This document shows positions 1,293 through 35,695 of a stretch of 64,000 bases of DNA, in pieces. The notes under the pieces are model-generated. The model was not told the DNA's origin. It ran no database searches and was given only the letters and a program-made list of their open reading frames with translations. Location: contig JBBISH010000005.1 of assembly GCA_037441385.1 (NCBI GenBank), forward strand, positions 1-64,000, given 5' to 3'. The stretch's first letter is position 1. The number at the start of each line of letters is the position of its first letter. The position numbers and the translations under genes are program-made. Source of the stretch: Myxococcales bacterium. GTDB taxonomy: Bacteria; Myxococcota_A; UBA9042.

Positions 1293-1295
1293 GGC

Positions 1296-19297: not shown

Positions 19298-20953
19298 CTA
19301 CATCTCCAGTCTAGGCTGGCTCTCTTCGGCTGTCAGCGGCGTGTCGTCGGGCGGCGATGCGCGGCGCGCGCGCGACTTGGACCACTCGCGCATCTCGGCC
19401 AGGCGCTCGCGCATGGTCTGCGACAGCGGAATGACTTCGCGGCAGGCCGAGACCAGGCTGTTGGTGCCGATGTCGATGCTGCCCTGACCCTCGTCAAAGG
19501 TGTCGTACAGCGCACCCACCACCGCTTCTTCCAGTTCCGAGCCCGAAAAACCAGAAGTTGCGTCCAACAGTTGCTTCATGTCGAAGAGGCCAGGGTCGCG
19601 GTGGCGCTTCTTGAGCTGGATCGCCAAGATCTCTTCGCGCTCGTTGCGGTTGGGCAGGTCGACAAAGAAGATTTCGTCAAAACGGCCTTTGCGCAGCAGC
19701 TCGGGCGGCAGCATCGACACGTCGTTGGCGGTGGCAATCACGAACACCGGCGAGGTCTTCTCTTGCAGCCACGTCAGGAACGTAGCGAACACACGGGCGG
19801 TGGTACCACCGTCCGACTGCCCCGAGCTTTTGGTGCCCGAAAAGCCCTTCTCCAACTCGTCGAGCCACAGGATGGCCGGCGCCACCGCCTCGGCGGTCTT
19901 GATCGCCCGGCGCATGTTCTCTTCGGACGAACCGACCAGCGAGCCGAACACCTTGCCCACGTCCAAGCGCAGCAGCGGCATCTGCCAAGCTTGCGAAATC
20001 GCCTTAGCGCTCAGCGACTTGCCGCAACCTGGCACGCCCAGCAGTAGGATGCCCTTGGGCGCCGGCAGGCCGAATTCCTGCGCCGCCGGGGCAAACGCGT
20101 TGCGCCGCTTGTTCAGCCATTCCTTCATGTGGATCAGGCCGCCCACCGACTCCATGCCCAGCGCGGTCTCGTAGAATTCCAGAATGCCCGACTTGCGGAT
20201 GATGTGCTTCTTTTCCTGCAAAATCGTCTTGAGGTGGAAGCCCTTGTCGCGCACGGTGGTCTTGGCGAACACCTGGCGCGCTTCTTGCTCGGTCAAGCCC
20301 AGGGCGGCTTCAGCGATCTCGCGCTGCAGTTCGGGCGACTCGAGCACCTTTTGGAAATTCTTGCCAAAACGCTGCGACTTGGCGCCGTTGAACGCCATCT
20401 CGCGCACGATGTCTTCCATGGTCTGGCGATCGGGCAGGTCAAAGTCGACCACCACCGCGTCTTTCTCCAGTTCCATGGGAATCTTGACGATCGGCGACAA
20501 GAACACCACGGTGCGCTTGCACTGCGCGTCGGCAAAGGTATGGGGCAGGTCGCGGACGCGGCGCGCCACCATGGGATCATTGAAGAAGGGGTGGAAATCG
20601 CGGAGCACCACCACCGCGTCGCGGGTCAGGTTGTTCGACACCCAATCCAGCGCGCGGATCGGGTCGCGGATATCGCCCGGCACGTCGGCGGTGTCGCAGC
20701 GGAAACCCTGCGAGCACGACCACTTGATGAGCTGGCGCGGCTGCCAAGCGGTCACGTCCCAGCGATCGCGCAGCACCGGCGAGTCCAGCACGGCCAGGTC
20801 GCGGAGCCACTTTTCCACGCGCTCTTCTTCGGCCGAAACCACGTAGACCAGCTTGTACTGGGCGCGGATCAGGTAGTGCAGCTCGTCGACGGCCGGCGGA
20901 ACGGGGCGAAACGGCGAAGCCTCGGCAGCCTCGGTGATCATGTTGGTCGACAT
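19298..20953 (-). CDS. Ycf46-family AAA+ ATPase
   Basis: EEER, LRDFHPF, GVPGCGKSLSAK, LRLDVG, SSEENMR, WLDELEK, PPELLRKGRFDEIFFVDLP, PLSQTMRE. Confidence 0.9.
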   Translation of the reverse strand: MSTNMITEAAEASPFRPVPPAVDELHYLIRAQYKLVYVVSAEEERVEKWLRDLAVLDSPVLRDRWDVTAWQPRQLIKWSCSQGFRCDTADVPGDIRDPIRALDWVSNNLTRDAVVVLRDFHPFFNDPMVARRVRDLPHTFADAQCKRTVVFLSPIVKIPMELEKDAVVVDFDLPDRQTMEDIVREMAFNGAKSQRFGKNFQKVLESPELQREIAEAALGLTEQEARQVFAKTTVRDKGFHLKTILQEKKHIIRKSGILEFYETALGMESVGGLIHMKEWLNKRRNAFAPAAQEFGLPAPKGILLLGVPGCGKSLSAKAISQAWQMPLLRLDVGKVFGSLVGSSEENMRRAIKTAEAVAPAILWLDELEKGFSGTKSSGQSDGGTTARVFATFLTWLQEKTSPVFVIATANDVSMLPPELLRKGRFDEIFFVDLPNRNEREEILAIQLKKRHRDPGLFDMKQLLDATSGFSGSELEEAVVGALYDTFDEGQGSIDIGTNSLVSACREVIPLSQTMRERLAEMREWSKSRARRASPPDDTPLTAEESQPRLEM

Positions 20954-21047
20954 CGATCTTCTCCGGCGGCGCCGCGGCGCCACGTGCTAGTTCGTTGGCA
21001 TCGCTTGGGGAATTCGCAAACGGACCCGCGGAGGGTCGCCCAAGCTG

Positions 21048-22943
21048 CTAGTGCAGGCCAAGGTCTTGTTGCAGGGACTTGATCATGCGCTCTTGCATGC
21101 CCAGGTCTTGCGCCAGCACCACCGTGGCGTCCAGCACCAACTCGATCTGGTCGGCGAGCTCGCCCGTCTTGTCGCGCTGGCGGTTGAGCCGATCGGCGGT
21201 GTCGCGTGCCAACAAGGCATTGCGCTTGCTTGCCACGATCGCTTCGGCCAAATCGGCGATCTGCTCGCCCATCTCGGCGGTAATCGCGGGCCCAGCTTTG
21301 GCGCTGCCCGCTTCCATCAGTTCGGCGATGCGCCGTTCGGCGTCCTTGACCTGCTGTTCGGCGTGGTCGGCGCGCAGCTTGTGGCGGTCCAATTCCCCTT
21401 GCAGGGCGCGGGCATTGCCGCCCTCGGCCGCGGCGGCCTCTAGCTTGAGCTCGGCCTTGGCCAGATCGCGCTGCACCTGCTGCAATTCCTCGCGCATGCG
21501 CTCGATTTCGCGAACCTTGGCCTTGAATTCGGGGTGCTCGGTAAAGTCGATTTCCTTGGGCTTCTTGTCGGCCGCCGACTTGGCCGCGTCCAGGTCTTTG
21601 CGCAAGTTGTCGATCTGGCGGCTCTGCTCGTTGATGCGGTCGCCCAGTTCGTCGTTGCGCTTGATGGCGTTGTGGAAGTCTTGCAGCAGCTTGCGCTTTT
21701 CGTCTTCCAGGCCGCTGATGCCCACGCCCATCTGCGCTTGACGTAGCTCCAGCTCTTTGGCGCGCAACTCGGCCTTCTTCTCTTGGATCAGGTTCTCTTT
21801 CTCCTCGATGATTTCCTGGAGCATGTTGATCTTGCGCTCGTAGGAATTGTTCGAGAAGTTGCCGTCGTTGATGATCGACTCCAGCGACAGCACTTGGTCC
21901 TTCAGCGCTCGCGCCTCGTAGTCCAGCTGATCGTACTGCCGCTGCAGTTCTTCGATCTGGCGATCCTTTTGCGTGACGCGGACTTTCAGGCCGGCGATGC
22001 GCTCTTGGGCGTCGGCGCTTTTGTCTTCCGCTTCCTTGGCGCGCCGCTCCAGCTCGCGGACCTTGGCCTCGGACTCCAGCGCGTCGTTCTCTTTGTGCGA
22101 AAACTTCTCGCGCTCTTGCTCCAGCTGCCGGCTCAGCGTCTGGGCGTGTTCCTTGAGTTGCGAGTACTTGTCGTACAAGCCCTCGTCGGCCACCGCGTTG
22201 CGTTCCATGTCGCGGATGCGGTTTTCGGCCGCCAGCGCGCGCTGCAGCAGCTTGCCGTTTTCGGCCTGGATCTCGGCCAAGGTGCGGCGGAGCGAGTCCA
22301 TCTCGGCGTGGTTGACCTGGATGACCGGCATCGGCGCGCTGGCGTTGGGCACCTGCGGCGCCGACATGGCCGCCGAGGGCACGCGCGACATCTGTGCCGA
22401 CGCGGGGCGCTCCGCCGGGACGGGCGCCCGTTCTACCGGCCGTTCTGCGGGGCGCTCCAGGGGTGGGCGCTCGGCGTGGCCGCCGCGGTCCAGGTTGCGC
22501 AGCTCGGGCAGGGCGCTGCGGGCCTCCAACTGCTCGCGGAGCTGCTGGGCCATGCCGGGCTGATGCATGGTCGGCCCAGGCATGTGCTGGCGGGGCGCCG
22601 GGCCCGCAGCGGGGGCCGGGGCGCGGCTCTGGGCCGGGGCGTCGCCGGCGCGGGCATGGATCTCAAAGCGCTCGCCGCAGCGGACCACGTCGCCTTCGCG
22701 GATGCCAGCGCGCTTGACCTGCTTGCCGTTGACAAAGGTGCCGTTGGCCGAGCCGATGTCCTTGATGTAGTAGGTCCGGTCCTGGTCGTCGTAGCCAATG
22801 CGCCCGTGGTCGCGCGAGACCGTCGACTCATTCGAGAAGATCTTGGAAACGTTGGGCTTGCGGCCGATGGTGACCGGCTCGATGTCCTGGCTCATCTGCA
22901 ACTGCATGAGCTTGCCGTCGACGTCGCGCCACTCCAGGTACAT
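21048..22943 (-). CDS. FHA domain + long coiled-coil protein
   Basis: FHA motifs TIGR, VSRDH, DIGSANGTFVNG; ~400-aa heptad-rich C-terminal part. Confidence 0.85.
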   Translation of the reverse strand: MYLEWRDVDGKLMQLQMSQDIEPVTIGRKPNVSKIFSNESTVSRDHGRIGYDDQDRTYYIKDIGSANGTFVNGKQVKRAGIREGDVVRCGERFEIHARAGDAPAQSRAPAPAAGPAPRQHMPGPTMHQPGMAQQLREQLEARSALPELRNLDRGGHAERPPLERPAERPVERAPVPAERPASAQMSRVPSAAMSAPQVPNASAPMPVIQVNHAEMDSLRRTLAEIQAENGKLLQRALAAENRIRDMERNAVADEGLYDKYSQLKEHAQTLSRQLEQEREKFSHKENDALESEAKVRELERRAKEAEDKSADAQERIAGLKVRVTQKDRQIEELQRQYDQLDYEARALKDQVLSLESIINDGNFSNNSYERKINMLQEIIEEKENLIQEKKAELRAKELELRQAQMGVGISGLEDEKRKLLQDFHNAIKRNDELGDRINEQSRQIDNLRKDLDAAKSAADKKPKEIDFTEHPEFKAKVREIERMREELQQVQRDLAKAELKLEAAAAEGGNARALQGELDRHKLRADHAEQQVKDAERRIAELMEAGSAKAGPAITAEMGEQIADLAEAIVASKRNALLARDTADRLNRQRDKTGELADQIELVLDATVVLAQDLGMQERMIKSLQQDLGLH

Positions 22944-23231
22944 CCGCGCCTGCCTCCCCGCTCTCCGTACCACCGCCGCGGTACCAGCTGCGACCGCGTG
23001 CCGCAGTCACAGCGCCAGTCCAGCGCACAGTCGCGGCACCCGCCCTATGTTTCACTGGAAGCTGCAAACTTGCAACCCTGGGCACGCGGTCTGCGCAATT
23101 CCGACCGACTCCTTCGCCATGCGAGCGGGCAGAACGGCCAAGTCGCGCCGCGCAGCCGGTTCGCGCTTGATCCGACTTGGCTGGACGAGCGGCTGCGATC
23201 GTGGCGGCCGGGCTCTTGGGCTTGGGGTGGA

Positions 23232-24329
23232 TCAGAAGCCCTTGGCCATCACCGCCGGCATGCCGCGCTCGATCTCGCGCACCGACTGAGTCAGCACGGC
23301 CAGCGAGTGGCGATCGTACGCTTCGACCACGGTGGCCACGCCGATCTGCTCGTCCGGGAATTCCTTCAAGTTGCCCACGTCGCTACGCCGCAGACCGTCG
23401 CCGCGCCACATGATCTCGAACCGATTGCCCTTCTCCACACCGTCGTCGGCACCCTTGTCGATGTAGACGTAGTGGAACTGGCCCGCCGCCGTGGTCTCGT
23501 GGTGGAAGTCGACGATCGTGCCAAAGAGTTCGACCTTGTTCGGCGTCGGCTTGGTGAGCGTCAGCGGCTCGAACACGTTCGTCACCAGATCGCCGCGGCT
23601 GATTTCCGAGTACGACCGCGTCAGGAGCACGCTGGCGAGCGGCTTGTTGGTGCGCAGGACCTTGCCTTCGCCCAAGAAATTGATCTTGTAACCGATCACC
23701 TTGCCTGTCAGCGGATGGACCACCTCGCGCTCGACGCGATACAGCGTGTAGCGGTCGTTCTCTTTGACGCACGGGCCCACAAACGCGTCGGGGTCCTTCT
23801 CGCGCGCCTCGGGCGTGTCTTCGCTGCAGCGGCGCATCTGGAAGCGCACGTAGACTTCGTCCAGCGTGCCCAGCATGTTGCGCTCTTCGCGGCTGGCTTC
23901 CACGGCGCCGGATTCGCGGTAGTCGCGCGAGCTGATGTAGCCCACGCGGCGCACCAACTCAACCGGGGCGTTCTTGATCGGCTGGAACCGCGACGACGCG
24001 AAGGTGACGGCCTTTTGCGCCTGGGCTGGCGGGGCCTTGCGCGACAGGTACAGGACGTCGCCGGGGTAGATCTGGTGCGGATTGGTGATCTGCGGGTTGT
24101 AGGACCACAGCGATGGCCAGTACCAGGGATCATCGTACAACTGCTCGGCGATCGACCACAGCGTGTCACCTTGCTCCACCACGTAGATGCGCTCGCCGGT
24201 CTTGGCCGAGTCCTGCACCGCGATCGTCGGTTGCGATTTGTCGGGCAGCCACTGGGCCTGCGCCGCCCCAGCAACGGTCACTGCGGGCACGGCCACGGCC
24301 AGCGCAGCCAGCCAATACAGGTACTTCAT
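23232..24329 (-). CDS. LysM peptidoglycan-binding secreted protein (TsaP-like)
   Basis: Signal peptide; YVVEQGDTLWSIA..LYDDPWYWPSLWSYNPQITNPHQIYPGD; VYIDKGADDGV. Confidence 0.85.
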   Translation of the reverse strand: MKYLYWLAALAVAVPAVTVAGAAQAQWLPDKSQPTIAVQDSAKTGERIYVVEQGDTLWSIAEQLYDDPWYWPSLWSYNPQITNPHQIYPGDVLYLSRKAPPAQAQKAVTFASSRFQPIKNAPVELVRRVGYISSRDYRESGAVEASREERNMLGTLDEVYVRFQMRRCSEDTPEAREKDPDAFVGPCVKENDRYTLYRVEREVVHPLTGKVIGYKINFLGEGKVLRTNKPLASVLLTRSYSEISRGDLVTNVFEPLTLTKPTPNKVELFGTIVDFHHETTAAGQFHYVYIDKGADDGVEKGNRFEIMWRGDGLRRSDVGNLKEFPDEQIGVATVVEAYDRHSLAVLTQSVREIERGMPAVMAKGF

Positions 24330-25258
24330 GGTTCCGTCCGTGGCGGCCGATGGGCCAGGTCGTCACCGGCGCGCTTGGCCGCCGGCGTCCCCGGATAGTG
24401 TTTGCACAACTGGCGCAGCACATCGCCCGCACCGGCGTCGTCGCCAAGCTTCTCGTAGCTTTTGGCCAACTTGTACATGGCGTCGGGCACTTTGTTGCCG
24501 CGCGGGTATTCTTTGGCGACGCGCACGAAGTAGCCGGCGGCCTTGAGCCATTGCGACTGGGCGTACCAACTCTCGCCGATCCAATACAGGGCGTTGTCGG
24601 CCAGGTCGTGATCCGGGTGGGCCTGCAGCAGTTGCTCAAAGGCCGCGCGCGCGGCCGGCAGTTGCTCGCTGTCCAGCAGGGACTTGGCCTGGTTGTAGAG
24701 CACCACCGCCGGATCACCCTTGGGTTTTTGGTTGTCCAACTGCGGCGGCAGATCGCCGCCGGGGCCCGACGGACTGGGCGTGGGCGCGGGCACGGCTACC
24801 GCCACCGGCGTGTCCGGCAACTCGCCGCCGCCCTCTTCCTCGGCCTCGACCGCGCGCGGCGGCACCTGTGCGGGTCCAACGCGCACTGTGGGCAACTTGG
24901 GAATCCAGCTCGACTCTTTGCGCGATCGATCGACCCGGGCCGAATCCGCCTTCTCTTCGACCATCACCAGTCGGCTGCGCAGTTCATCGAACTGCACCCG
25001 CGAGGCCGCCTGGCTCCGCTTGAGCTCGTCCAGATCGTCGCGAAGGGCCTGAAGTTCGGATTCGAGCTGTTGAACCCGGGTCGAGCCGCATCCGGTCGCC
25101 AAGAGCAATGCGGCGCTGGCTGCCAAGCCGGGAATTGCAACTGCTTGCGGAAATAGGGGAAATCGCAAGCTCGCCTCGCTGGCCGGGACCATACCCAGCC
25201 GCCAATGCCGCGCGCCAGACCGTGGGGCCAGGATCGCGACGTCTAGACCGTACCGCAA
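24326..25258 (-). CDS. Tol-Pal-associated CpoB/YbgF-like TPR lipoprotein (start uncertain)
   Basis: Lipobox LATGC, N-terminal coiled coil, LADNALYWIGESWY, YPRGNKVPDAMYKLA, YPGTPAAKRA. Confidence 0.8.
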   Translation of the reverse strand: MRYGLDVAILAPRSGARHWRLGMVPASEASLRFPLFPQAVAIPGLAASAALLLATGCGSTRVQQLESELQALRDDLDELKRSQAASRVQFDELRSRLVMVEEKADSARVDRSRKESSWIPKLPTVRVGPAQVPPRAVEAEEEGGGELPDTPVAVAVPAPTPSPSGPGGDLPPQLDNQKPKGDPAVVLYNQAKSLLDSEQLPAARAAFEQLLQAHPDHDLADNALYWIGESWYAQSQWLKAAGYFVRVAKEYPRGNKVPDAMYKLAKSYEKLGDDAGAGDVLRQLCKHYPGTPAAKRAGDDLAHRPPRTEP

Positions 25259-25270
25259 GGGCCGCTCATG

Positions 25271-25672
25271 TCAACATTTCTGGCCGCGCCGCCGCACCTG
25301 CGCCCAGCCCGACCGCAGTGACGGCGCGACTTGGGCCCAGCCCAGACCCAGCCGCCGCAGCAACCACACGGGCAACCCGTGGTCCGGCCAACGCAGCACC
25401 AAGGGCCCCCAGCGCAGCGCCGCCAGCTTGCCCATGACCGCCAGGCGCGGCACGGGCGGGTCGGCGCGGTGGTTGGTGTCGCCACGGGTTTCCAGGCGAT
25501 CGCCGCGCACCGAAATCACGCGGTGCAGCACGAGAACTCCAGGGCGATCTGAAATAAAACCTATGATATCGCCAATTTCAAGCTCGTCGGCGGGCCGGAG
25601 TTGGACCTGAAACGGCGTCCGCAGCGGCCACATCGACGCGCCGTGCACGGGCCACCAGGTCGCCTCTGTCAT
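25271..25672 (-). CDS. S24/S26-family (signal-peptidase-like, Ser-His) peptidase
   Basis: GASMWP, GDII, VLHRV, TRGDTN..ADPP; start chosen at MTEATWW. Confidence 0.75.
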   Translation of the reverse strand: MTEATWWPVHGASMWPLRTPFQVQLRPADELEIGDIIGFISDRPGVLVLHRVISVRGDRLETRGDTNHRADPPVPRLAVMGKLAALRWGPLVLRWPDHGLPVWLLRRLGLGWAQVAPSLRSGWAQVRRRGQKC

Positions 25673-25736: not shown

Positions 25737-26939
25737 TCATTCCACGTCACCCACGCGCACACCGCGGCCTTTCTGCGGGCGGTAGATGGGGAAGATGAAC
25801 TTGCCGGGGCGCGGCGGGTGGCTGCCGCCGTCTGGAATACTCGCCCAATCCTCTGCGGTTAGCTTGGCCCCGCGGGCCTGCTCGTAGCCGCGGAGCTCGG
25901 CGCGCGTGCGCGTGTGGAAGTGCGCGGGGGGCGTCTTGTAGTCACCGGTCGTCTTGTATGCCTCGCCGGGGCAATAGAAGCACATTCCGCTGCCCGCGCA
26001 GGTCATGCAGCCGTCGCGGTCCTTGTTCTTCCAATTCTGCAGTCCTTTGAGCTGCGGCGAGTTCTCCCAAATGTCGACCAACCGGTGCTCGCGCAGGTGG
26101 CCCAGCTCCATCGGGAACATGACGCAGGGCCACACCGCGCCGTCGGGCGAGATATAGAACTGGGTGCGACCAGCGCCGCACGGGCCTTCCTCGGGACGCT
26201 CGTGGATGGGCACCATGTTGTTGCCGATCGACTTGGCCGCGGCGTACGCCAGCGCCTTGGCCCGTTCGCGCTGCACGTCGCTCAGGTTCAGCAAGTCCAG
26301 GTCTTCGCGCGCCAGGTGGTCGCGGTAGATCGACGTGCCAAACTTGACGACCATGCCCTGACGCGTGAAGTGGCCAAAGAACTCGGGAATTTCCTCGATC
26401 GTCTCGGGCTGGACGATGAACTCGATCTCCACGGCCACGCCAGCCGCCTTCAGGCAGGCGATGCCGGCCATGGTCGCCACCCACGAGCCCGGCCGGCGCG
26501 TGAACCGATCATGCACGTCGGCCCGCAGGCTGTAGACCGAGATCTTGGCCTCCATCACGCCGGCCGCCGCCAGCCCTTGCGCGATGGCGGGGGTGATGGC
26601 GCCGGCATGGGTGCGAATCACCTGGCGGAATCCAAGCTTGGCCGCGGACTGAATCAGCTCCAGCAGGTCGGCCCGCTGGGTCACTTCGCCGCCGCTCCAG
26701 GCGACGAACCAAACGCCCAGCTCGGCCAACTGCTCTAGCACCGCCAGCCACTCCGCGGTCGTCAGCTCGGGCCAGGTGGTGCGGTTGTCCAGGTAGCAGT
26801 GCTGGCAATCCAACTCGCAGCGGTAGGTCACGTCGATTTGCACGCGCGCCGGCCGGCCGCTGCTCTGGTAGGCCGCGACCAGGCGGTCCAGGAAATCGTC
26901 CTGCTGCGGCGTATCTTGTTGAGCCATTCCCAATTCCAT
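25737..26939 (-). CDS. Radical SAM / SPASM-domain peptide maturase
   Basis: CELDCQHC (CxxxCxxC), SGGE, SPASM CGAG..FYISPDGAVWPC and CMTC...C..CPG. Confidence 0.9.
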   Translation of the reverse strand: MELGMAQQDTPQQDDFLDRLVAAYQSSGRPARVQIDVTYRCELDCQHCYLDNRTTWPELTTAEWLAVLEQLAELGVWFVAWSGGEVTQRADLLELIQSAAKLGFRQVIRTHAGAITPAIAQGLAAAGVMEAKISVYSLRADVHDRFTRRPGSWVATMAGIACLKAAGVAVEIEFIVQPETIEEIPEFFGHFTRQGMVVKFGTSIYRDHLAREDLDLLNLSDVQRERAKALAYAAAKSIGNNMVPIHERPEEGPCGAGRTQFYISPDGAVWPCVMFPMELGHLREHRLVDIWENSPQLKGLQNWKNKDRDGCMTCAGSGMCFYCPGEAYKTTGDYKTPPAHFHTRTRAELRGYEQARGAKLTAEDWASIPDGGSHPPRPGKFIFPIYRPQKGRGVRVGDVE

Positions 26940-26957: not shown

Positions 26958-27746
26958 CTACTCCCAGAGCACCCTCTCTAGTAGCGGGAGCGGGGTGTCC
27001 AGGCAATGCGACAAGGAGTAACTGGGCACGCTGCCCAGCAAATTGACCAAGTGCTCCGTCATGCGATGGGTAACCCACGGAGTCGCGTAGTAGGTCTGTT
27101 CCAGCAGTCGCTGCACGGACCACGTCAGGGGCAGCGGCTCTTTGGCGGTGCTGCTGCGGTCGGGTCCCAACGTGAAAATTCGCCGCAGCGGCGCAACGAA
27201 CGGATGGTCGCCTGGCCCGGCGCGGTGGATGTTTTGGAACCACACCTGCCAGCCGTCGTCGCCGGGCATCAGCAAGCTGGTGTCGTCGTGCAGATAGCGG
27301 CCGTGGAAGCGCCGGGCCAGCGTTGACTTGCCCGCTCCAGACTGGCCGCAAACCACCACCGCCTCGTTGGCGCGCCGAAGGGTCGCGCCGTGCAGCAGAA
27401 TACCGCCGCGACGCAAGGCCAGTGCCAGCATGGTCGCCAGGGCGGTCGAGCTGCGCAAGTCCAGCTGATCATAGGGGCTCTCTGGCACAGGCCAGTGCCA
27501 AACCGCAGTCATCGAGGGCCAGTCGATGTCTACCGCCGTGCGCCGGGCAACGATGCGACAGCCGCTGTCGGTCCACGTCATGAATTGTGCGTAGTCTTCG
27601 TCGCTGGGCGGCGCGTCAAAGGGCAGCAGATCGACCTGCAGCCGCTGTCCTTGCCGCGCCGGGCGTTCGCCGCAGCCAAGGGGAAACCAGGCCTGGCCGT
27701 GGGTGTTCACCGCGACGTCCAGCGGTCCAAGCTGCCAGCCGTACAC
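26958..27746 (-). CDS. HPr-kinase-related P-loop protein (RiPP-cluster kinase-like)
   Basis: LLHGA...VVCGQSGAGKSTLA...LHDD motif set. Confidence 0.7.
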   Translation of the reverse strand: MYGWQLGPLDVAVNTHGQAWFPLGCGERPARQGQRLQVDLLPFDAPPSDEDYAQFMTWTDSGCRIVARRTAVDIDWPSMTAVWHWPVPESPYDQLDLRSSTALATMLALALRRGGILLHGATLRRANEAVVVCGQSGAGKSTLARRFHGRYLHDDTSLLMPGDDGWQVWFQNIHRAGPGDHPFVAPLRRIFTLGPDRSSTAKEPLPLTWSVQRLLEQTYYATPWVTHRMTEHLVNLLGSVPSYSLSHCLDTPLPLLERVLWE

Positions 27747-27755: not shown

Positions 27756-27950
27756 TCAGCAGGGATCGCCAAAGCCCGCCGTTGGGCACGCGACCGTGTC
27801 GGGGCAGCTGTTTTGCGTGCAGCCCGACTGGATCAGGCCCTGCAGCAGCCCGCGCTGCGAGTGCAACGTCGGCGCCGAGTAGGCTCGCCGCTGCTTGGTC
27901 TGCTCCGCAGGTTTGGCGTTGGCCTTTGCGTGCGTCTGTGTTTTCTGCAT
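27756..27950 (-). CDS. Putative RiPP precursor peptide (64 aa)
   Basis: AGGGAG RBS; leader with RRAYSAPTL (YxxPxL); core GCTQNSCPDTVACPTAGFGDPC; adjacent to kinase, rSAM and near PqqD. Confidence 0.75.
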   Translation of the reverse strand: MQKTQTHAKANAKPAEQTKQRRAYSAPTLHSQRGLLQGLIQSGCTQNSCPDTVACPTAGFGDPC

Positions 27951-28007
27951 AGGTCGTCTCCCTGCAAGTCTTCGCTGGGCGCGGGGCTTGTGCCGCGGGC
28001 GCCGCTG

Positions 28008-31000
28008 TTAGTACACCACCACCAAGCTGCCGTCCGTCGAGCCGATGACCAGGTCGGCCACGCCGTCGCCGTTGAAGTCGCCCACCGGCGCGAAGCTGAG
28101 TGGCACGAGCGCTGCGGTCGACACCACACCCCAGTTGGTCTTGGTGTTGTTGGCTGGGTCGTAGATGGCGATGTCGCTGTTGATGAACGAAACCTCGTTC
28201 GGAATGGCCGAACCGGGCCGCTGAACGCCCAGTCGCACGATTACGCGGTTGCTGCCGCCCGTATCGGCGGCCGACGACCGGCCGTGCACGAGGTCGATGA
28301 TCGGGTTGGCCGTGACCGGGCGGTCGGCAAAGTTGCCGATGGACTTGATGCCAAAATGCCAATCGCGCAGCCGGTAGCCACCGGGGACCAGGAATAGGTT
28401 GCTGGTACCGGCGATAGCCACCTCGGTGCCCATCGGCACCACCTTGCCCAGGTTGTCCTTCAGGTAGGCGCCGTGTAGCCAGTAGATGCCGCCACCGCCC
28501 TTGGCTGCCAAGCCCGAGTAGTGCTGCACCGCCAGGTCCGGAATGGCGTCGTTGTCCAGGTTGACGACCTCGGTGAACATGCCAAAGCCGCTGGTCGACA
28601 CGTTCAAGTTGCCCAGCACCTGCACCGCCGTGGAGTCCGCGCTACCCGTAGTCATCGCCTTGGACAGCCCAAGATCCTGGGCGCCCACCAGCGGACGGCC
28701 CTTGATGATCCACAGCGCTTGGTTGGCGCTGGGGGTGAACTGGCCAATCGCCAAGTCGTCGTACTGCTTGTTGCCCGCGTCGGCGAGCATGTTGCCCACG
28801 CCGAACGGGAACGCGAAGTAGGCCGCGCCCACCTGATCCACCAGGTGAATGGTGGCTACGTTGTTGGTCGCCAAGCTGGCCGGGTTGTCGATGTCGATGA
28901 GCGTGGGCGTGGTCTCGTTCCAGGCCGGGTTGCCCGGAATCACCACCACGCGATCGTAGGTCAACGTCGACTGCAGCGCCGAGATGGCGATGTCTTGGAT
29001 GGGCTTGCCGGCAGCGGTCACGTCGCCGTTGAAGTTGCCGATGGCGTTGGCGCGCACCACGCCGTCGCCAAGCGGGTTAGTGACTTTGCTGACGATGACC
29101 GCCGGGTTGGCCGCGATCGCCGCGCCCTTCTTGCCCAAGTAGACGTGGACGTAGCGCGGGTTCGACGTCCCTGCTCCCACGCCGACGATCATGTCGTCCA
29201 CCCCGTCGCCGTTGACGTCGCCGCTCTTGCCCACCGGCATGCCCAGGCCGCCCGCGTTCGTCAGGCACACGTGGCTTGGGTAGGCCGACGGGTTCGACAA
29301 GTCGATGTCAGTCAAGTTGAACTTGACACGCCCGTACACCACGCACAGCGGAGCGGTCGCGCCGCCGCCCAAGGCAAAGTCGCCCAGGCCGTCGCCGTTG
29401 AGATCGCCCACCGCGGCCACGCGCTGGCGCACGTCGGCCACGTTTTGCGCGCCGCCCAGGAGCAGGTTGGCGTAGTGCAGGCGCAACGCGTTGGTCGACA
29501 GCACGTTCGACAGCGGCGAAGCGTTGCCGGCGGCGTCCAGCGCCTCGACCGCGAAGTAGTACGCCGACGAGCCATTGTCGATCATCGGAGCAAACTTGCA
29601 CGGATCGGCCAGATCGCGCTCGTCCGGGCCCTCGACGAAGACCGCGTCCGCCTGACCCGCCGCCTTGGGGGCACCAATCGTCGAGAACAACACCTTGCTG
29701 CCATCGCAGGCCGCGTCAAAGTCGGCCTGGGTGTTGATCGGTGCCTTGCTGTAGCGCACAGCGTAGGTCTTGGCCGTGCCCACTGTGCCGTTGTCGCCCA
29801 CGGCCGTGAAGTTCAGCTTGGCCATCGGCCGGCGTGGGTTCAGGTCCGAGGTCAAGAAGTCGGCCAACGTCACCTTGGCCGGCGCAGTCCAGTCGACCAG
29901 GACGATCACGCTGGCCTTGCCGGTGTTGCCGGCGGCATCGACCACGGTCGCCGTCACGGTGTTGGTGGCGTCCTCGGTCAGCGTGGCGAACTGGATTTCA
30001 ACGCTTTGGCTGGTGCCGCTCAGGGCCACCGGCAGGGTCGGCGCCGTGGCTGCCAGCGCGCCGGTGGTGCTGCCCACGGTGTTGGTCAGCGTGGTGAGCT
30101 TGCCGCCAGCCAAGCCGCTGTCGGTCGCGCTGAGTTTGAGGTGCAGCTGGTGACCGGGGCTACCGTTGAGGTCGCGCGCTTTGCCCAGCAGGTTGACGGT
30201 GCTGCCACCGGCCGGCGTGTTGACCCCGAGTACCTGGTCGGCCACGAAGGCAACCTTGGGGTTGGTCAGGTCGGCCTTGAGGGGCAGGGCACCCGAGCTG
30301 CCGGCCACGGCGGCCGTGGCGTCCAGCGCCAACGCCTCGACCGTGGTGTTGTCGCCGTCGGCCACGGTCAGGCTGAAGGTTGCCTTGCCGTCCGCCGTGG
30401 GCGCGGCCTTGCCGACCTCGGTGCTGCCCTTCTTGAGCTGCAAATTGGCGACCGCGCCGCACGGCCCCACAAAGGCCGCGGTCACGCTGACCGTCACGCT
30501 CGCGCAGTCGCTGCCCGCGGTGGCGCAGTTCTGGGTGTTGTAGCTGCCCGAGCTGCTCAGGCCCTGCAGCGACACCAGGCAGCCGGTCAAAGCGACCTCA
30601 AAGTCGCGGTCGGCCGTGGTCACGTTGCCATTGACGTCGGTACCCGTGAGCCGCGCCTTGTAGAAGTTGCCATTGCCGAAGGGGATCGTCACCAAGACGG
30701 CCGGCTCCAAGCCGCCCGGGTTGGCGACGTTGCCGCTGGCCACCGCCTTGAAGCTGCCGCAGTTCGCAAAGTTGCTGTCGCAGCCCGTGGCCAGGTCCAG
30801 GCTCCAGGTCGCGGCGTCGGTGGTGCTGAAAGCCACCTGCACTTGGTAGCCGCCTTGGCTCGGCGCCGCATCGTCCTTGTCGCCAAACTTGGCGGCCTGC
30901 GCCGGTGCGGTAATGGCGAGCGTGGGCGGCAGCAGGTCGACCGTGACCTTGCTGGGGGTCGTGCCAAAGACGCCCGTGTTGCCGCAGACGTCGCTCAGGT

Positions 31001-34000
31001 CGGCGGTCAGGGTGTGGTCGCCTTGGCTGAGCAGCTTCCACTTGGCATCGGCGAACATGGCCTGGCCGCCGCTCATGGTCTCGTTGGCCTTGCTCACACC
31101 GCCGTCTTTGATCAAGACGCTGGCGCCGTCCACGTCGTTGGCGGTCGAGGTGACCATCACGTCGAGCGGCGAGCCGACGATGATCTTACTGCTCGAGGGC
31201 GACGCGAAACCGCCGGTCGGCTTCTGGGTGTCGACGACCAAGGGGTTCAACGTCTTGACCACGCTGGTATTGCCCACCAGATCGGTGGCGGTGGCGGCGA
31301 ACACTTGCGTGCCTTCGCCGGCCAACGTCACTGCCAGGCCGCTGGCCGTGCTGGTCGAGTTGCCCGTGGCCAGCTTGGCGCCATTGCCCACGATCACCAC
31401 GCTGGCGGCCTCCGACGTGGCCACGCTGAAGGTGAACGTGCCGCCCGGCGCCGCCGAGTCGGGCGCAGACTGGCTGGCCTCGTTCAAGCAGGCCGCCGTG
31501 GCTCCGGGTGCCGCCGGCGGATCGAACGTGGTCACGACCGGCGCCACCGTGTCGATGAGGATGGTGCGCTGCTTAGCCCAGCTCTGCAGGCTCGAAAGGC
31601 TGGAAGTGGGCGCGATCAAAGTGCCAAACGAGACCTCGGCCATGAAGGTATACAGGCCGTCGGGGATGGTGGCCGGGATGGAGTAGTTCATGACCTGGCC
31701 AGTGATGGTCAGATTGACAACCTCTTTGTAGCCCGCCGTGGCGCAGGCCGCGCCGGTGATGCCCGGCGACTTGCTGCAGATACGCAGCGTGCCGCCAATC
31801 GGTACGCCGGCAATGTTCACCGAGCCGCTGCGCGGCGCGCCCTTGTTCATGCCAGCTACGCACGTGCTCTGATAGCACAGGCCCAGCGGGCAGTTGGCGT
31901 TGCTGGTGCAGCTGGTGCCCTCGGCCACGTTGCTGGGGGTGTTCATGTCGACGCGGGCTTGCTGCGCCTTGACGGACGCCGTGATGGTCGCCGTCCCCAC
32001 ATTGCCGTTCTGGTCGGTGATGGAAAGCGACAGCTGTACCTTGTCGCCGTCGGGCAGGCTGACCAAGCCGAACGCAACGTTGGCGCCGACCGTGTCGGTC
32101 GCGTCGGACTGGGCGGTGCCGGTGAACGTCCCGGTGACCTTGCCGGTGTCGTCTTTGATGACCAGGGTGGCCGTCGCGCCCTTGTTGACGCCGAAGACCT
32201 GCATGATCACGTTGGTCAACACCGAACTATCCGTCGGGTCGCCGACGTCGTCGGCCGCGACAAAGTACAGCGCTTTCTTGGTCTTGCCGGTGGGGAAGAC
32301 CAAGTCGTCGAACACGGGCGCCACGCGGTCGACCACCACGCTCACGGCGCTGCTCGTCGCGACCTGGCCGGCGCTGTCGGTCACGGAGGCCACCAGGGTG
32401 CACGTGCTCTGGTCGGCCAGCGTGATTGCCTGGAACGTAAAGGTATTGCCGCTGCTCTTGCCGGTGTACGACTGCGGAGCCGCCGTGCCGCAAGCCACGT
32501 CGAGCTTGATGGGGCTGCCGTCTTCCACGTCGGTCACGCTGACGGTGGCCGTGGTGGCGCAATCCTGCGCACCGGCCAAGCACTCGCCGGACTTCAAGTT
32601 GAAGGTCGCTCCAGCCGCGGGCGCCGTGATCGCAATGGCCGGCTTGGCCGCCTTGTAGGTCACGGTGATCACGATGCTGTAACCGGTCGCGTCGGGCTGA
32701 GCACCCGGCGCCGCTGCGCTCATCTGCACGGTCGTGCTCGGCTTGGCCGACAGACCCGCCACGACGAACGTGTACGTGCCCGCACTCGTTTCGCTCACAT
32801 CCACCGCAGCCGCCACGCCGTCCACCAGAACTTGCACCGTCGCGCTGGTCACAGGCGCACCGCCCACTTGCGTCACTTCGGCGGTGAAGCTCAGGCTGTC
32901 TTGGGTGGTGGTCACGTTGCCCTTGGGCGAAACCAGCTTGACGATCGGGGCCTGCGAGACCAGCGTGACCACCAACGGGGCGGCGATCGTGGGATTGCCG
33001 ACGCTGTCCGTGGCGGTGGCGTTGACCACGTTGACGCCCGGATCCAGCGTCACGGCGGCAAAGGTGACGGAAGTGTCGCTGGCCGCCGTGTTCTTGCACA
33101 GCTTTTCGCCGGTCGACGACGCGATGCACACCTGGGCGGCGTCGGCGATCGACAGGGTCACGTCGGTCTGATAGCCGGGGATCTGCGGGCTGACGTCAAA
33201 ATCCTCAAAGGTGGTCAGTGTCGCCTTGTTGGGCAGCGAGAACGCAATCGCCGGGCCGGTCGTGTCGATGTGGACAACGCGGCTGACATCGCCGCACAGG
33301 CCCACCGCCGCGCTGTCCGAGGCCTTGTTGCCAAAGTCGTCGACCGCCTCGAACGAAATCACGTAGGTACCGTCGGCCAAGTTGCCCGCGGCGGCCAGCT
33401 TGAGCGTGCCGGTCAGGCCAATGGCCGACAGGGTGCCCAGGGTCTGCGGGTCGCTTGCCACCCCTTGATCCGAGACGATGGTCGCAATGGCCGCAGCCCC
33501 CTTGAGGTTTTGGGTGGCCAGCGTGATCGGCAGTTCGTGCGTGGTCACGGTCAACTCGGCCGCTGGCGAGACGAAGTTCAGGCAGGGCGCTGGGACCGCA
33601 ACGGTGGCCGTAATTTCTTCCGAAAGCGCAGCGTTAGGCGCTGCGAAGTCGCCGTAGCCGTCGGTGACGCGGCAGGTGATGGCGGTACCGACAAGGATGG
33701 TGTCGATGGCGACGGGGATGGTCAGCGTGCCGTCGCCGGTCACGGTCGCTTTGCCGATCGGCTGGTCCGGCCAGTTGATGCCTACGCCCGATTTGCGGCA
33801 GAACACGGCCACTTCCGAGTCGACCGTGCCCTGCTTGACGTCGACGGCGAACTTGGTCTCGTAGGTGCCGTTCGTGCCAAAGTTCTGGTCGTCTTTGGCC
33901 AGCAGCACGGCGCCCGCCGTTGGCGAGTTGATGGCCAAGGTGGCCTGGTCGACAAACGCTTGCACCGGCCAAGACGCCGACGTGCTCAGCCCGCAGGCGT

Positions 34001-35174
34001 TGGTTGCCTTGACGGCGACGTTGTAGGTCTTGCTGGTGGTGAGCGACAGGGTCAGGGGGAAGGTGCCGTCCGCGCCGATCGTGGCCGTGCTGGCGGTTCC
34101 GCCGTCGAGCTTGTACTCCACACTGGCACCGATCCCCAAGGTGCTGGCTGTGCCGGTCGAAACCACTTGAATGCCAGGCGTTTGCGGGTCGGAGTCGTTG
34201 CCCAGGGTCACGGCCTTGGGCAGCTGCACGGCCAGCGACGGCGCCTCGGTCGACAGCGTGACCGCCAGGGGAGCGGACGGCTGCGAGCCGCGCTCGGGGT
34301 GCTGGCTGTCGACGACCACGGCCACGATGTTCAGCTTGACGCCGTCCAGTCCGCCGCTCTGGCTCGAGAGGGTCGCGGTGATCGGGGTCGAGCTGGCGCC
34401 GCCGAGCGACACTTTCTCGGTGGTGACCGACTTGCCTTCTGCATCGGTGAACTGCAAGAACGCGTCAGTGCAGCCGGTCGACGTGGTGGTGACGGTAAAG
34501 GTGTACTGGAAGCCGGCGTCGCTGTTGCCGTCCGTGGTGATGCAGGGCGTGTCGATCGCCGCAATGGTCGCCTGGCACGCGGCACCACAATCCAGCACCA
34601 GCGACTTGGTTTTTTCGCCGCTTTGGGTGTTGGCCGTCACGGTGGCGGTCAGGTTCACCCCGGTTTGTCCGCAAGCGATGGTGACGCCCTTGAAGTCGGC
34701 CTTGCCACCCTGCAAGACCACCGGGCCCAAGCTGGAGTTGCCCACCTTCAAGGTGACTTGCGAGCCATCCGCCGCCTGCGCCGCGGTGACCACGACGTTG
34801 ACTTGCACACCAACCGTTGCCGGATCCAAATCTGCGTCCGCGCTGATCTTGGCGCTGGTGGCCACGTCTTCCAGGGCGTTGCCCACCGCGGTCTCTACGT
34901 ACAGGTTCACCACTGGCACGGGCGGCGGGACGTCGGCCGTGTCGCCGGTCCCGATGTCCTCGGCATCGGCCAGGGTGGTGTCCGTGTCCGTCACGGCATC
35001 CGGGCACGGCCCAAAGATGTCATTGCCGCACTTGGGGCCCACCACGGGGATGTCTGCGTCGCAACTACTCAGGGCGAGCAGCGACAAGGCGAGTGCGAGC
35101 AGGCCGGGCCAGCGACTAGCGAACAGGGGCTGGCGGCGGACCGGGGTCTGGTTGGCGGTGGAGGGGCGGTTCAT
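28008..35174 (-). CDS. Giant surface lipoprotein with tandem Ig-like repeats, FN3-like domain and C-terminal FG-GAP beta-propeller
   Basis: AGGAG RBS before ATG 35174; lipobox LSSC; repeated DxxGN and (V/I)DxxxP Ig junctions; GDLNGDGLGD, GDVNGDGVDD, GDFNGDGVAD repeats. Confidence 0.85.
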   Translation of the reverse strand: MNRPSTANQTPVRRQPLFASRWPGLLALALSLLALSSCDADIPVVGPKCGNDIFGPCPDAVTDTDTTLADAEDIGTGDTADVPPPVPVVNLYVETAVGNALEDVATSAKISADADLDPATVGVQVNVVVTAAQAADGSQVTLKVGNSSLGPVVLQGGKADFKGVTIACGQTGVNLTATVTANTQSGEKTKSLVLDCGAACQATIAAIDTPCITTDGNSDAGFQYTFTVTTTSTGCTDAFLQFTDAEGKSVTTEKVSLGGASSTPITATLSSQSGGLDGVKLNIVAVVVDSQHPERGSQPSAPLAVTLSTEAPSLAVQLPKAVTLGNDSDPQTPGIQVVSTGTASTLGIGASVEYKLDGGTASTATIGADGTFPLTLSLTTSKTYNVAVKATNACGLSTSASWPVQAFVDQATLAINSPTAGAVLLAKDDQNFGTNGTYETKFAVDVKQGTVDSEVAVFCRKSGVGINWPDQPIGKATVTGDGTLTIPVAIDTILVGTAITCRVTDGYGDFAAPNAALSEEITATVAVPAPCLNFVSPAAELTVTTHELPITLATQNLKGAAAIATIVSDQGVASDPQTLGTLSAIGLTGTLKLAAAGNLADGTYVISFEAVDDFGNKASDSAAVGLCGDVSRVVHIDTTGPAIAFSLPNKATLTTFEDFDVSPQIPGYQTDVTLSIADAAQVCIASSTGEKLCKNTAASDTSVTFAAVTLDPGVNVVNATATDSVGNPTIAAPLVVTLVSQAPIVKLVSPKGNVTTTQDSLSFTAEVTQVGGAPVTSATVQVLVDGVAAAVDVSETSAGTYTFVVAGLSAKPSTTVQMSAAAPGAQPDATGYSIVITVTYKAAKPAIAITAPAAGATFNLKSGECLAGAQDCATTATVSVTDVEDGSPIKLDVACGTAAPQSYTGKSSGNTFTFQAITLADQSTCTLVASVTDSAGQVATSSAVSVVVDRVAPVFDDLVFPTGKTKKALYFVAADDVGDPTDSSVLTNVIMQVFGVNKGATATLVIKDDTGKVTGTFTGTAQSDATDTVGANVAFGLVSLPDGDKVQLSLSITDQNGNVGTATITASVKAQQARVDMNTPSNVAEGTSCTSNANCPLGLCYQSTCVAGMNKGAPRSGSVNIAGVPIGGTLRICSKSPGITGAACATAGYKEVVNLTITGQVMNYSIPATIPDGLYTFMAEVSFGTLIAPTSSLSSLQSWAKQRTILIDTVAPVVTTFDPPAAPGATAACLNEASQSAPDSAAPGGTFTFSVATSEAASVVIVGNGAKLATGNSTSTASGLAVTLAGEGTQVFAATATDLVGNTSVVKTLNPLVVDTQKPTGGFASPSSSKIIVGSPLDVMVTSTANDVDGASVLIKDGGVSKANETMSGGQAMFADAKWKLLSQGDHTLTADLSDVCGNTGVFGTTPSKVTVDLLPPTLAITAPAQAAKFGDKDDAAPSQGGYQVQVAFSTTDAATWSLDLATGCDSNFANCGSFKAVASGNVANPGGLEPAVLVTIPFGNGNFYKARLTGTDVNGNVTTADRDFEVALTGCLVSLQGLSSSGSYNTQNCATAGSDCASVTVSVTAAFVGPCGAVANLQLKKGSTEVGKAAPTADGKATFSLTVADGDNTTVEALALDATAAVAGSSGALPLKADLTNPKVAFVADQVLGVNTPAGGSTVNLLGKARDLNGSPGHQLHLKLSATDSGLAGGKLTTLTNTVGSTTGALAATAPTLPVALSGTSQSVEIQFATLTEDATNTVTATVVDAAGNTGKASVIVLVDWTAPAKVTLADFLTSDLNPRRPMAKLNFTAVGDNGTVGTAKTYAVRYSKAPINTQADFDAACDGSKVLFSTIGAPKAAGQADAVFVEGPDERDLADPCKFAPMIDNGSSAYYFAVEALDAAGNASPLSNVLSTNALRLHYANLLLGGAQNVADVRQRVAAVGDLNGDGLGDFALGGGATAPLCVVYGRVKFNLTDIDLSNPSAYPSHVCLTNAGGLGMPVGKSGDVNGDGVDDMIVGVGAGTSNPRYVHVYLGKKGAAIAANPAVIVSKVTNPLGDGVVRANAIGNFNGDVTAAGKPIQDIAISALQSTLTYDRVVVIPGNPAWNETTPTLIDIDNPASLATNNVATIHLVDQVGAAYFAFPFGVGNMLADAGNKQYDDLAIGQFTPSANQALWIIKGRPLVGAQDLGLSKAMTTGSADSTAVQVLGNLNVSTSGFGMFTEVVNLDNDAIPDLAVQHYSGLAAKGGGGIYWLHGAYLKDNLGKVVPMGTEVAIAGTSNLFLVPGGYRLRDWHFGIKSIGNFADRPVTANPIIDLVHGRSSAADTGGSNRVIVRLGVQRPGSAIPNEVSFINSDIAIYDPANNTKTNWGVVSTAALVPLSFAPVGDFNGDGVADLVIGSTDGSLVVVY

Positions 35175-35263
35175 TTCACTCCTGCTGGTCGCGGCCTGGC
35201 GAGTCACTTTGCGTGTGCGGCTCCAGGCCATCGTTCGTCGGCGGACGGGTGCCGCCGGCTGGC

Positions 35264-35695
35264 TCAATTCTTGTGCCGGGTAGCCGTGTTGGCTTCTCCG
35301 GCGGGACCCATGGGTGCTCCACGTGCGGTTGCGCCAAGCGACACTTGCGGCGGCGTGCTCGCCAAGGTAGTCGGCTTTGCGGAACTAGACAGGGGGACGG
35401 CCGCGATTGGCTCACATTCCACGGCAATTCGCCGCTCGACCAGCTCGTTCACGAACCGGTCCAAGTCACTGGCGGCCTGTTCCCACTCGACCTCAAAGTC
35501 TTCGACCAATTGCGCGATCAGGGTGTCGCGACGTGCCGGGCCGGCCATGAGGCTGCGAAAAATCGCGACGGCCGTGGGCACCTCTAGGCGGTGCAGGCCG
35601 CGATCGTCGGTGACTACGAAGATCTCGCCGGCAACCTCGCGTGCCGCAGCAGCGGGGTGCATGGTGTAGGCGGTGTTCGCTGGCAGTAGGGGCAT
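35264..35695 (-). CDS. PqqD-family RiPP recognition element (RRE) protein
   Basis: REVAGEIFVV...TAVAIF...LIAQLVEDFEVEWEQAASDLDRFVNELVERRI. Confidence 0.85.
   Translation of the reverse strand: MPLLPANTAYTMHPAAAAREVAGEIFVVTDDRGLHRLEVPTAVAIFRSLMAGPARRDTLIAQLVEDFEVEWEQAASDLDRFVNELVERRIAVECEPIAAVPLSSSAKPTTLASTPPQVSLGATARGAPMGPAGEANTATRHKN

Follow-up and report, generated by a model that had tools for sequence, protein, structure and literature searches.

The system of the linear polyphosphorylated peptides (LPP), encoded by the lppA-K-B-S-D-N cluster of Paenibacillus alginolyticus and other Bacillota (Popov et al., Nat Commun 2026, PMC13381572), is, judged by the likeness of its components, the closest described counterpart of a small gene cassette that we analyze here in 64,000 nucleotides of a Myxococcales genome (contig JBBISH010000005.1 of assembly GCA_037441385.1, positions 1 to 64,000; hereafter, the window). 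At the center of the cassette is a 64-aa open reading frame (ORF) at 27756..27950 on the minus strand, which very probably encodes the precursor of a peptide made by the ribosome and modified after its translation (a RiPP). According to the LPP paper, the HprK-like kinase LppK polyphosphorylates Ser3 of the core, and the signal peptidase I (SpI)-like protease LppS cuts after T-1, needs the RiPP recognition element (RRE), and cleaves the unphosphorylated precursor poorly; in the precursor LppA, Tyr at -16 and Ser at +3 are 18 residues apart. The same text describes solved RRE-leader complexes, in which Tyr or Trp, Pro and the next aliphatic residue fill two pockets and the following residues extend a beta-sheet, and it reports that the role of the YxxP motif in RRE binding has been demonstrated for lasso and LPP leaders. 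The distribution of LPP is given there as Bacillota-restricted, patchy and transfer-driven (PMC13381572).

The cassette in the window is a six-gene unit, encoding in this order a PqqD-type RRE, a giant FG-GAP lipoprotein, the precursor, an HprK-like kinase, a radical S-adenosylmethionine (SAM)/SPASM enzyme and an S26-like protease, and all six genes are co-directional on the minus strand, to which the window coordinates below refer. Several of its parts recall LPP as that system is described. Both precursors have a YxxPxV-type leader and a variable C-terminus, both systems possess a discrete PqqD-type RRE, to which the cassette adds a predicted counterpart of the HprK-like kinase, and both have a soluble signal peptidase I of the archaeal/Sec11 type with a Ser/His/Asp triad, LppS being compared through its published description alone. 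In addition, a Ser is located 18 residues after the leader Tyr in each case, from Y-16 to S+3 in LppA and from Y24 to S42 here. In contrast, the remainder of the LPP consensus, LxHQxIxFET, is absent from the family of the window peptide, and LPP clusters are described without a radical SAM enzyme, the words 'radical' and 'SPASM' never occurring in the text of the LPP paper. The cassette, for its part, is without the nucleotidyltransferase LppN and the MsbA-like exporter LppD of the LPP account, its peptides carry an obligatory Cys beside the Ser, and the giant lipoprotein gene lies inside the operon. Finally, whereas LPP is reported as patchy in Bacillota, the cassette is syntenic, single-copy and present in 34 of 36 genomes of one family.

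The precursor gene and its peptide family

The precursor gene extends from an ATG at 27950 to a stop codon at 27756..27758, and its translation, MQKTQTHAKANAKPAEQTKQRRAYSAPTLHSQRGLLQGLIQSGCTQNSCPDTVACPTAGFGDPC followed by a stop (window 27756..27980), is letter-for-letter identical to the peptide of an initial annotation of this DNA, in which it was regarded as a RiPP-type precursor with a lasso-like leader and a four-Cys core. The ribosome-binding site claimed there is found as GGGAGA, 6 nt upstream of the ATG, and the claimed Cys spacing, C-x4-C-x5-C-x8-C, is also that of the translation, with Cys44, Cys49, Cys55 and, as the final residue, Cys64. GC at codon positions 1/2/3 is 0.585/0.569/0.831 in the peptide frame, the GC3 of neighboring genes being 0.76–0.89 and the GC of the window 66.4%, and the frame looks coding; the ORFs that overlap it in other frames are a usual by-product of high GC. 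Among the models scanned, no Pfam or NCBIfam family matched the peptide. The exact peptide is already present in a collection of 5.8 billion proteins, and 52 small relatives are contained in a representative library, so that the remark in the initial annotation that gene callers would often miss so short an ORF does not hold for this one, since it and 52 of its relatives were called.

A word-based homologue search with the single peptide matched only the peptide itself. In a six-frame search of 61 related genomes, a copy with 59% identity (E 7e-22) was found in genome G005, the closest relative, and many weak matches lay directly upstream of the HprK-like gene of the genome concerned. In each of the 20 relatives whose loci were fetched, the giant gene and the HprK-like gene flank a homologous small ORF, with Trp in place of Tyr in one of them. 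Thus, conservation of the ORF, on which its interpretation had been made to depend beforehand, is seen in every fetched locus, and the homologous peptides that were to be sought beside related radical SAM genes are located ahead of the HprK-like and radical SAM genes in all 20. Comparison of the window and G005 codon by codon gives 23 identical, 15 synonymous-only and 26 non-synonymous positions, the last concentrated in the first 22 residues, and close pairs likewise keep the leader motif and the tail, with the N-terminal ~22 residues drifting. As far as these codon comparisons indicate, purifying selection acts on the leader motif and core between close pairs.

A family profile of 20 peptides was searched against 1.84 billion representative proteins and gave 54 matches at E<=1e-3, 11 of them at <=1e-10; 52 are peptides of 48–128 aa with the same layout. 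Matches of 3357 aa and 338 aa were dropped as internal repeats rather than family members. The 3357-aa protein (P0013), from another organism, has six leader-profile matches via a repeat, ..PYVDPDLATF.DDLTAVLDDA.., and its likeness was judged from the sequence to be repeat-driven chance and not a fusion. Among sampled genomes, the profile matches 19 of the 23 from the window's own family and one from a sister family, amounting in all to 21 of 301 with the window's own genome included; elsewhere in the phylum, the sampled genomes gave no match. A more distantly related peptide with [Y/W]xxPx[VIL]x[ST], mostly followed by ..FE..L.[ST].C, precedes the HprK-like gene in 13 of 14 sister-family loci. 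Because of the profile matches and these sister-family versions upstream of the HprK-like gene, we regard the gene as real and the family as broader than one genus; by these sequence comparisons, the ORF at 27756..27950 is a real, conserved gene. The sister-family peptides (L120–L133) have F-E at Tyr+11/12 and usually two Cys, as in ..PYEPPQVTSGPAFEKVVLFSGC.., the F-E pair being reminiscent of the F-E-T at the end of the LPP leader.

The layout of the family was counted over 61 distinct peptides, with the Tyr as position 1, and follows the signature R-x-P-[Y/W]-x-x-P-x-[V/L/I]-x-[S/T], then L..LL, Ser/Thr at Y+17..19, Cys, and a short variable tail. Position -3 is Arg in 54 of the 61 and position -1 is Pro in 45, and Leu occupies positions 13, 16 and 17 in 55, 50 and 51 peptides, respectively. 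Position 1 is Tyr in 59 and Trp in 2, position 4 is Pro in 61/61, and position 6 is V/L/I/M in 61/61; the YxxPxL segment to which the initial annotation drew attention is, therefore, the most conserved feature of the family. Position 8 is Ser/Thr in every peptide, position 19 is Ser in 50 and Ser/Thr in 53, and a Ser/Thr is present within positions 18–20 in 61/61. In the window peptide, the codons of Y24-S-A-P-T-L29, the [Y/W]xxPx[V/L/I] leader motif and presumed RRE-binding segment, are located at 27864..27881, and that of Ser42 (Tyr+18), a candidate phosphorylation site, at 27825..27827. The variable Cys/Pro/Thr/Asp-rich tail from C44 to C64, with Cys at 44, 49, 55 and 64, is encoded at 27759..27821 and constitutes the minimal core.

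The first Cys is found at position 21 (Tyr+20) in 36 of 61 peptides, with a range of 18–28, and is followed by 1–24 residues, among which Pro, Thr, Asp and Gly predominate and Lys and Arg hardly occur. All 61 tails contain at least one Cys (one in 32 peptides, two in 6, three in 16 and four in 7), which is the sole residue kept in every tail. Hence, the four-Cys core does not extend to the family as a trait: it is present in 7 of 61 peptides and confined to some lineages, one Cys being conserved family-wide. Since the counts range from one to four, what is conserved in the chemistry cannot be four fixed thioethers.

These tails also bear on the view that the product is a class I-like lasso peptide, cut before Cys44 and closed by a macrolactam between Cys44 and Asp51 (position 8), with two disulfides. 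Both the YxxPxL leader motif and the discrete PqqD RRE speak for this, as does a core that, counted from Cys44, has Asp at position 8 and four Cys. Cut at that point, the window tail superficially recalls what we take to be class I lasso cores, and the resemblance may explain the earlier lasso impression. However, the cores of the family are often single-Cys and too short (CTDPDPA, CSTTD), many members having 4–9 residues after the first Cys when a lasso ring would need an Asp or Glu at position 7–9, and the operon holds a radical SAM enzyme and an S26-like peptidase instead of lasso enzymes. The B2 transglutaminase-like protease (PF13471) has no match in the window's genome, which is 90.9% complete, and of 8 genome matches to Asn-synthase (PF00733), none is located on the window's contig, C5, where the operon ORFs are otherwise assigned. 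Given the absence of PF13471 from the genome and of an Asn-synthase cyclase from the contig, and the many tails too short for a ring, the product is not considered to be a lasso peptide, an extremely improbable outcome, and a lasso reading of the initial annotation is not supported. Its description of the ORF as a RiPP-type precursor fares better, and is supported by the conserved motif, the RRE in the operon and the adjacent radical SAM/SPASM and HprK-like genes. The anatomy is that of a RiPP pathway: the peptide has a recognition block that is conserved between a variable N-terminus and a hypervariable tail, and it is accompanied by an RRE, a protease and two modifying enzymes.

The RRE, the modifying enzymes and the peptidase

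The RRE gene (35264..35695) encodes a discrete PqqD-family protein of 143 aa, consisting of a ~95-aa winged helix-turn-helix domain and a Pro/Ala-rich tail, and its stop codon and the TTG start of the listed giant ORF overlap. Some 7.5 kb upstream of the precursor and beyond the giant gene, it is easily overlooked when just the immediate neighbors are inspected. Orthologues are present in 35 of 36 same-family genomes. Both the RRE gene and the HprK-like gene are present in 33 family genomes. In 31 of these, they share contig and strand, with the RRE gene 7.5–8.3 kb upstream of the other, and in the remaining two they are on different contigs; two sister-family genomes show the same spacing. 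Given this constant distance, the giant gene always stands between the RRE and HprK-like genes. That an RRE belongs to the same operon, as had been assumed earlier, is thus confirmed by the fixed spacing and by a PF05402 score above the cut-off (30.9 bits against 23.4) in a genome-wide PqqD search.

The RRE family profile matches PbaB1 (9x90_B, E 6e-4), TbiB1, TfuB1 and LppB (9x8z_B, E 0.013), and the nearest solved relatives are, in other words, the lasso B1 and LPP RREs, which bind [Y/W]xxP leaders. RRE residues 1–98 were co-folded with the peptide, using a 20-row alignment for each, and the pair scored 0.40, the best of 3 controls reaching 0.02. At least 95% of contacts recur between runs, with a partner pLDDT (predicted local distance difference test) of at least 47. 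Of 157 solved complexes, 116 reached the mark applied to such co-folds, as did 2 of 215 mismatched pairs, and the range up to 0.60 holds 18 of those 157 solved complexes and both of the passing mismatches. As similar complexes have already been solved, the co-fold shows likeness rather than proof. The predicted RRE-leader complex called for in the initial annotation was obtained at the grade of 'weak support', possibly through likeness to solved complexes. At ~407..1725 on the minus strand of locus L097 (G000 contig C37), a second small PqqD-family protein, of 91 aa (PF05402, E 4e-12), is encoded directly upstream of a 348-aa ORF that appears ATP-grasp-like by eye; it could be part of a further peptide-modification locus of this genome.

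The gene directly after the precursor (26958..27746) encodes a predicted HprK-like P-loop kinase of 262 aa, with an N-terminal beta domain and a nucleotide-binding domain of the phosphoenolpyruvate carboxykinase (PEPCK)/HprK type. Its NCBIfam matches, ScmC (1.4e-6) and HprK_rel_A/B (3e-5/1e-4), are all below cut-offs, at 27.9 bits versus 125 for ScmC and 23 versus 200 for HprK_rel_A. The block GG.LLHG...G.A.VV.G.SGAGKSTLA.RF....LHDD is conserved in 20 sequences, in which H119, G134, S136, G139, K140 and T142 are invariant. The AlphaFold2 model has a pLDDT of 91.4, and Foldseek matches it to PEP carboxykinases (E from 2e-6) as well as to the HPr kinase/phosphorylases 1knx, 1ko7 and 1kkl (E 4e-4 to 9e-4). 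Among the kinase relatives listed are Bacillota genes, and 5 of the 6 loci examined read Asn_synthase, Hpr_kinase_C, PqqD, Transglut_core3, NTP_transf_5, which is the order of a paeninodin-type lasso cluster. When the kinase family was aligned by hhalign to the lasso-cluster kinase of Paenibacillus violae, a probability of 96.9% was obtained (E 1.6e-10, 59 columns). With respect to the HprK-like kinase of LPP, motifs, fold and hhalign agree, the curated HprK models staying below cut-off and LppK entering the comparison by description only. Paeninodin-type clusters, which make phosphorylated lasso peptides (C, HprK-like kinase, B1 PqqD, B2, NTP_transf_5), share with the cassette the [Y/W]xxPxL leader, the discrete RRE and the tailoring kinase; the cassette, in contrast, is without a macrolactam synthetase or B2, has an S26-type leader peptidase, and adds a radical SAM/SPASM enzyme.

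The radical SAM/SPASM enzyme, of 400 aa (25737..26939), matches PF04055 (1e-18) and PF13186 (3.6e-11), and since its radical SAM domain begins at about residue 27, it has no fused N-terminal RRE. All 21 sequences compared keep the motif C41-x3-C45-x2-C48 and, in the SPASM region, C254, C272, C311, C314, C320 and C323. For this enzyme, every curated NCBIfam model stays below its cut-off, and the best sequence matches in the PDB are PqqE, SkfB and SuiB. The claim that a radical SAM/SPASM enzyme and an HprK-like kinase adjoin the precursor is borne out.

A SPASM-type radical SAM enzyme beside a small Cys-bearing precursor is also a point of likeness to sactipeptide and ranthipeptide systems, of which SkfB, the second-best solved sequence match (E 8e-15), is an example. 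The peptide tails are rich in Asp, Thr and Asn, which are acceptor residues in ranthipeptides. The cassette differs from these systems in that its RRE is a separate gene 7.5 kb away and not an N-terminal domain of the radical SAM enzyme, in the kinase and S26-type peptidase alongside, and in having one conserved Cys, for which a thioether would be a putative product. An HprK-like protein and a PqqE-like radical SAM/SPASM enzyme likewise occur together in the SynChlorMet (SCM) cassette, defined by comparative genomics only (ScmC, TIGR04249; ScmE, TIGR04250). ScmC is the best NCBIfam match of the P-loop protein, and ScmE is among the matches of the radical SAM enzyme. Membership of the window cassette in SCM was rejected, with 27.9 versus 125 bits for ScmC and 103.5 versus 400 bits for ScmE, and the window cassette has one radical SAM enzyme, not two. 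No paper on the SynChlorMet cassette was found in the literature searched, and there is, therefore, no known product for comparison.

The scores of both enzymes leave room for a different chemistry of the same precursor and cassette. The P-loop protein could be an ATP-dependent scaffold or an adenylating or activating enzyme, and the radical SAM enzyme could act on Ser-x-Cys without forming a thioether, by Cys oxidation, C-C or C-N cross-linking, epimerization, or a reaction on phospho-Ser. Such a course is made thinkable by the HprK-like protein scoring far below the curated cut-offs of every HprK-related model, by PEP carboxykinases leading its structural neighbors, by the three reaction types catalyzed by the nearest solved relatives of the radical SAM enzyme, and by one-Cys tails that, with just 4–7 residues after the Cys, leave little room for a ring. 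On the other hand, conservation of the P-loop block, of the His and of the acidic motif follows the pattern of HprK/P-type kinases, and the block aligns to the kinases of paeninodin-type lasso clusters with the 96.9% probability given above. In addition, the Ser/Thr at Tyr+17..19 in 61/61 peptides fits the phospho-site spacing of LPP, and Cys is the only residue in every tail. We consider this other chemistry rather unlikely, and phosphorylation together with Cys modification remains the preferred course.

The last gene of the unit (25271..25672, ATG at 25672) encodes a soluble protease of 133 aa that resembles signal peptidase I (S26, Sec11/SipW type) and is presumed to be the leader peptidase. 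It matches TIGR02228 (sigpep_I_arch) at 2.2e-7, below cut-off, and contains the motifs G-x-S-M-W-P-L, H-R-V and R-G-D-T...D. Among 16 orthologues, S13, H50 and D65 are invariant, and D71 is at least 90% conserved. The AlphaFold2 model (pLDDT 90.9) has LexA, SpsB and human SEC11 as its best Foldseek matches in the PDB (TMq 0.47–0.54, E ~1e-2), and the predicted fold is of the S24/S26 type, without an N-terminal membrane helix. In the model, residues 100–132 (25271..25372) form a 33-residue basic C-terminal helix, which could be a membrane-surface or partner-binding element.

A peptidase of this fold raises the reading that the ORF encodes a small secreted protein or lipoprotein, with ..LLxSGC as its lipobox or the end of its signal peptide, and that the neighboring enzymes are unrelated to it. 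Residues 39–44 of the window peptide, L-I-Q-S-G-C (27819..27836), are indeed lipobox- or signal-peptidase-like, the family consensus being L-L-A-S-G-C with small residues at -3 and -1, and the operon encodes both a signal-peptidase-type fold and a lipoprotein. However, the 35–40 residues before the Cys are polar and charged and lack a hydrophobic h-region of the usual length, many members have Gln, Thr or Val at -1, and the model of the S26-like protein is without an N-terminal membrane helix. Moreover, this reading would assign no role to the strictly conserved [Y/W]xxP motif, to the RRE or to the radical SAM enzyme, and a secreted protein or lipoprotein is thus very improbable. With the ORF taken as a RiPP precursor, the L-I-Q-S-G-C segment may be a coincidence or a hint at the cleavage site.

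Proposed course of maturation

Gene content, conservation and folds are what was observed, and from them we infer every chemical step of the course proposed here, to which, as a whole chain from docking to mature peptide, we give an even chance. The leader segment R-R-A-Y24-S-A-P-T-L29 would dock as a beta-strand on the discrete PqqD-type RRE (35264..35695). The HprK-like kinase would then phosphorylate the conserved Ser42, 18 residues after Tyr24; this site is favored because its distance from the Tyr equals that of the phospho-Ser in LppA. The initial annotation had named Ser and Thr as kinase targets in general, and of that idea the part that stands is a likeliest target, the conserved Ser42 before the first Cys, suggested by the LppA spacing, rather than Ser and Thr scattered through the core. 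The radical SAM/SPASM enzyme would modify the conserved Cys44 and, in this lineage, Cys49, Cys55 and Cys64. The Cys beside the Ser is its likely target because it is the only residue kept in every tail. Thioethers are the commonest outcome for SPASM enzymes that act on Cys peptides, and the likeliest product would be a thioether cross-link to a nearby side chain of the Asp/Asn/Thr type or to an alpha-carbon. Finally, the soluble Ser/His/Asp signal-peptidase-like enzyme would remove the leader, either after Leu39, in accordance with LPP spacing, or just before Cys44, small residues being present at -3 and -1 of the first Cys in many, not all, members. The mature peptide would be acidic and rich in Pro, Thr and Asp. 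A lanthionine route, by elimination of phospho-Ser and addition of Cys, was rejected, as there is no lyase or cyclase and the Ser and Cys are just 1–2 residues apart.

Several points weigh against this course. The RRE-leader co-fold is weak and may reflect memory of solved complexes of this kind. Kinase and peptidase are predictions from sub-threshold family scores, motifs and predicted folds, and the sequence of the radical SAM enzyme does not tell which reaction it catalyzes, the best solved relatives making C-C, thioether and Lys-Trp links. Of the sequencing runs listed for this DNA, all are DNA runs of one study, one of them possibly its source, and none is an RNA run. Neither the number of Cys (1–4) nor the length of the tail (1–24 residues after the first Cys) is constant, and no single ring topology is conserved, just as the cleavage site, after Leu39 or before Cys44, is ambiguous. 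The operon ORFs include no exporter, no LppN-type nucleotidyltransferase and no immunity gene, and the putative link between the peptide and the giant lipoprotein is one of gene order alone.

Gene order, distribution and the giant lipoprotein

The order peptide, kinase, radical SAM enzyme, peptidase is found in 20 of 20 fetched loci, and in 18 of 20 it continues from the S26-like gene to CpoB/YbgF and LysM genes. The other loci, L043 and L045, have no LysM match, and an FHA match directly follows CpoB in them; in some loci, the FHA gene is outside the part that was fetched. The HprK-like gene occurs in 34 of 36 family genomes, as part of a single-copy cassette. A promoter and terminator scan of the unit returned no sigma-70-like promoter and no minus-strand terminator pattern between genes. 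One terminator-like site was found on the plus strand, inside the giant gene, which is fewer than in shuffles, and the scan is weakly compatible with a single transcription unit. The intergenic hairpin from the giant gene to the peptide is no better than shuffles (z -0.15). PADLOC returned generic viperin-type matches for the radical SAM enzyme only, the other proteins being without a match. Downstream of the cassette, genes for a CpoB/YbgF-like tetratricopeptide repeat protein, a LysM protein, an FHA coiled-coil protein and an AAA ATPase (19298..25258, minus strand) follow in the same order in most fetched relatives. These genes are far more conserved than the cassette, with LysM 97% identical in the two closest genomes versus 42–63% for the kinase.

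Between the RRE and precursor genes, the giant gene (28008..35267) encodes a surface lipoprotein of 2419 aa that has Ig-like domains and, at its C-terminus, an FG-GAP region, its Pfam matches being Big_13 and FG-GAP. Its N-terminal signal, read by eye, ends in ..LLALSSC, a lipobox, and its C-terminus, ..GDFNGDG..DLVIGS.DGSLVVVY, is recognizable upstream of the peptide ORF in relatives. The mature peptide probably acts together with this lipoprotein. We go further only tentatively, in suggesting the possibility of a new RiPP class that combines LPP-type Ser phosphorylation with radical SAM chemistry on the adjacent Cys, and whose product would be a vertically inherited, housekeeping-like peptide working with the giant FG-GAP lipoprotein and not a diffusible antibiotic. 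The modified peptide might then be, for example, a bound ligand, a cofactor or a maturation factor of the lipoprotein.

No paper combining these components was found in the literature searched, with most subscription journals outside its range and with supplements of PMC13381572 that may list related clusters; by their sequences, the four enzymes form a combination that appears not to have been described in print. If the proposed steps hold, the cassette would be a hybrid of two tailoring logics, in which an LPP-type kinase and signal-peptidase-like leader removal are combined with radical SAM chemistry, and LPP-like pathways would extend beyond Bacillota. The precursor family, with 61 sequences, an invariant Pro and aromatic residue, a Ser/Thr-x-Cys site and a hypervariable tail, offers an experimental handle on these steps. 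For a natural-product cluster, the cassette is unusual in being single-copy, near-universal in one family, and fixed in order around a giant lipoprotein gene, and this distribution and order therefore point to a role at the cell surface or envelope rather than in warfare. If true, the coupling of a RiPP pathway to a giant adhesin-like protein would be a previously undescribed one.

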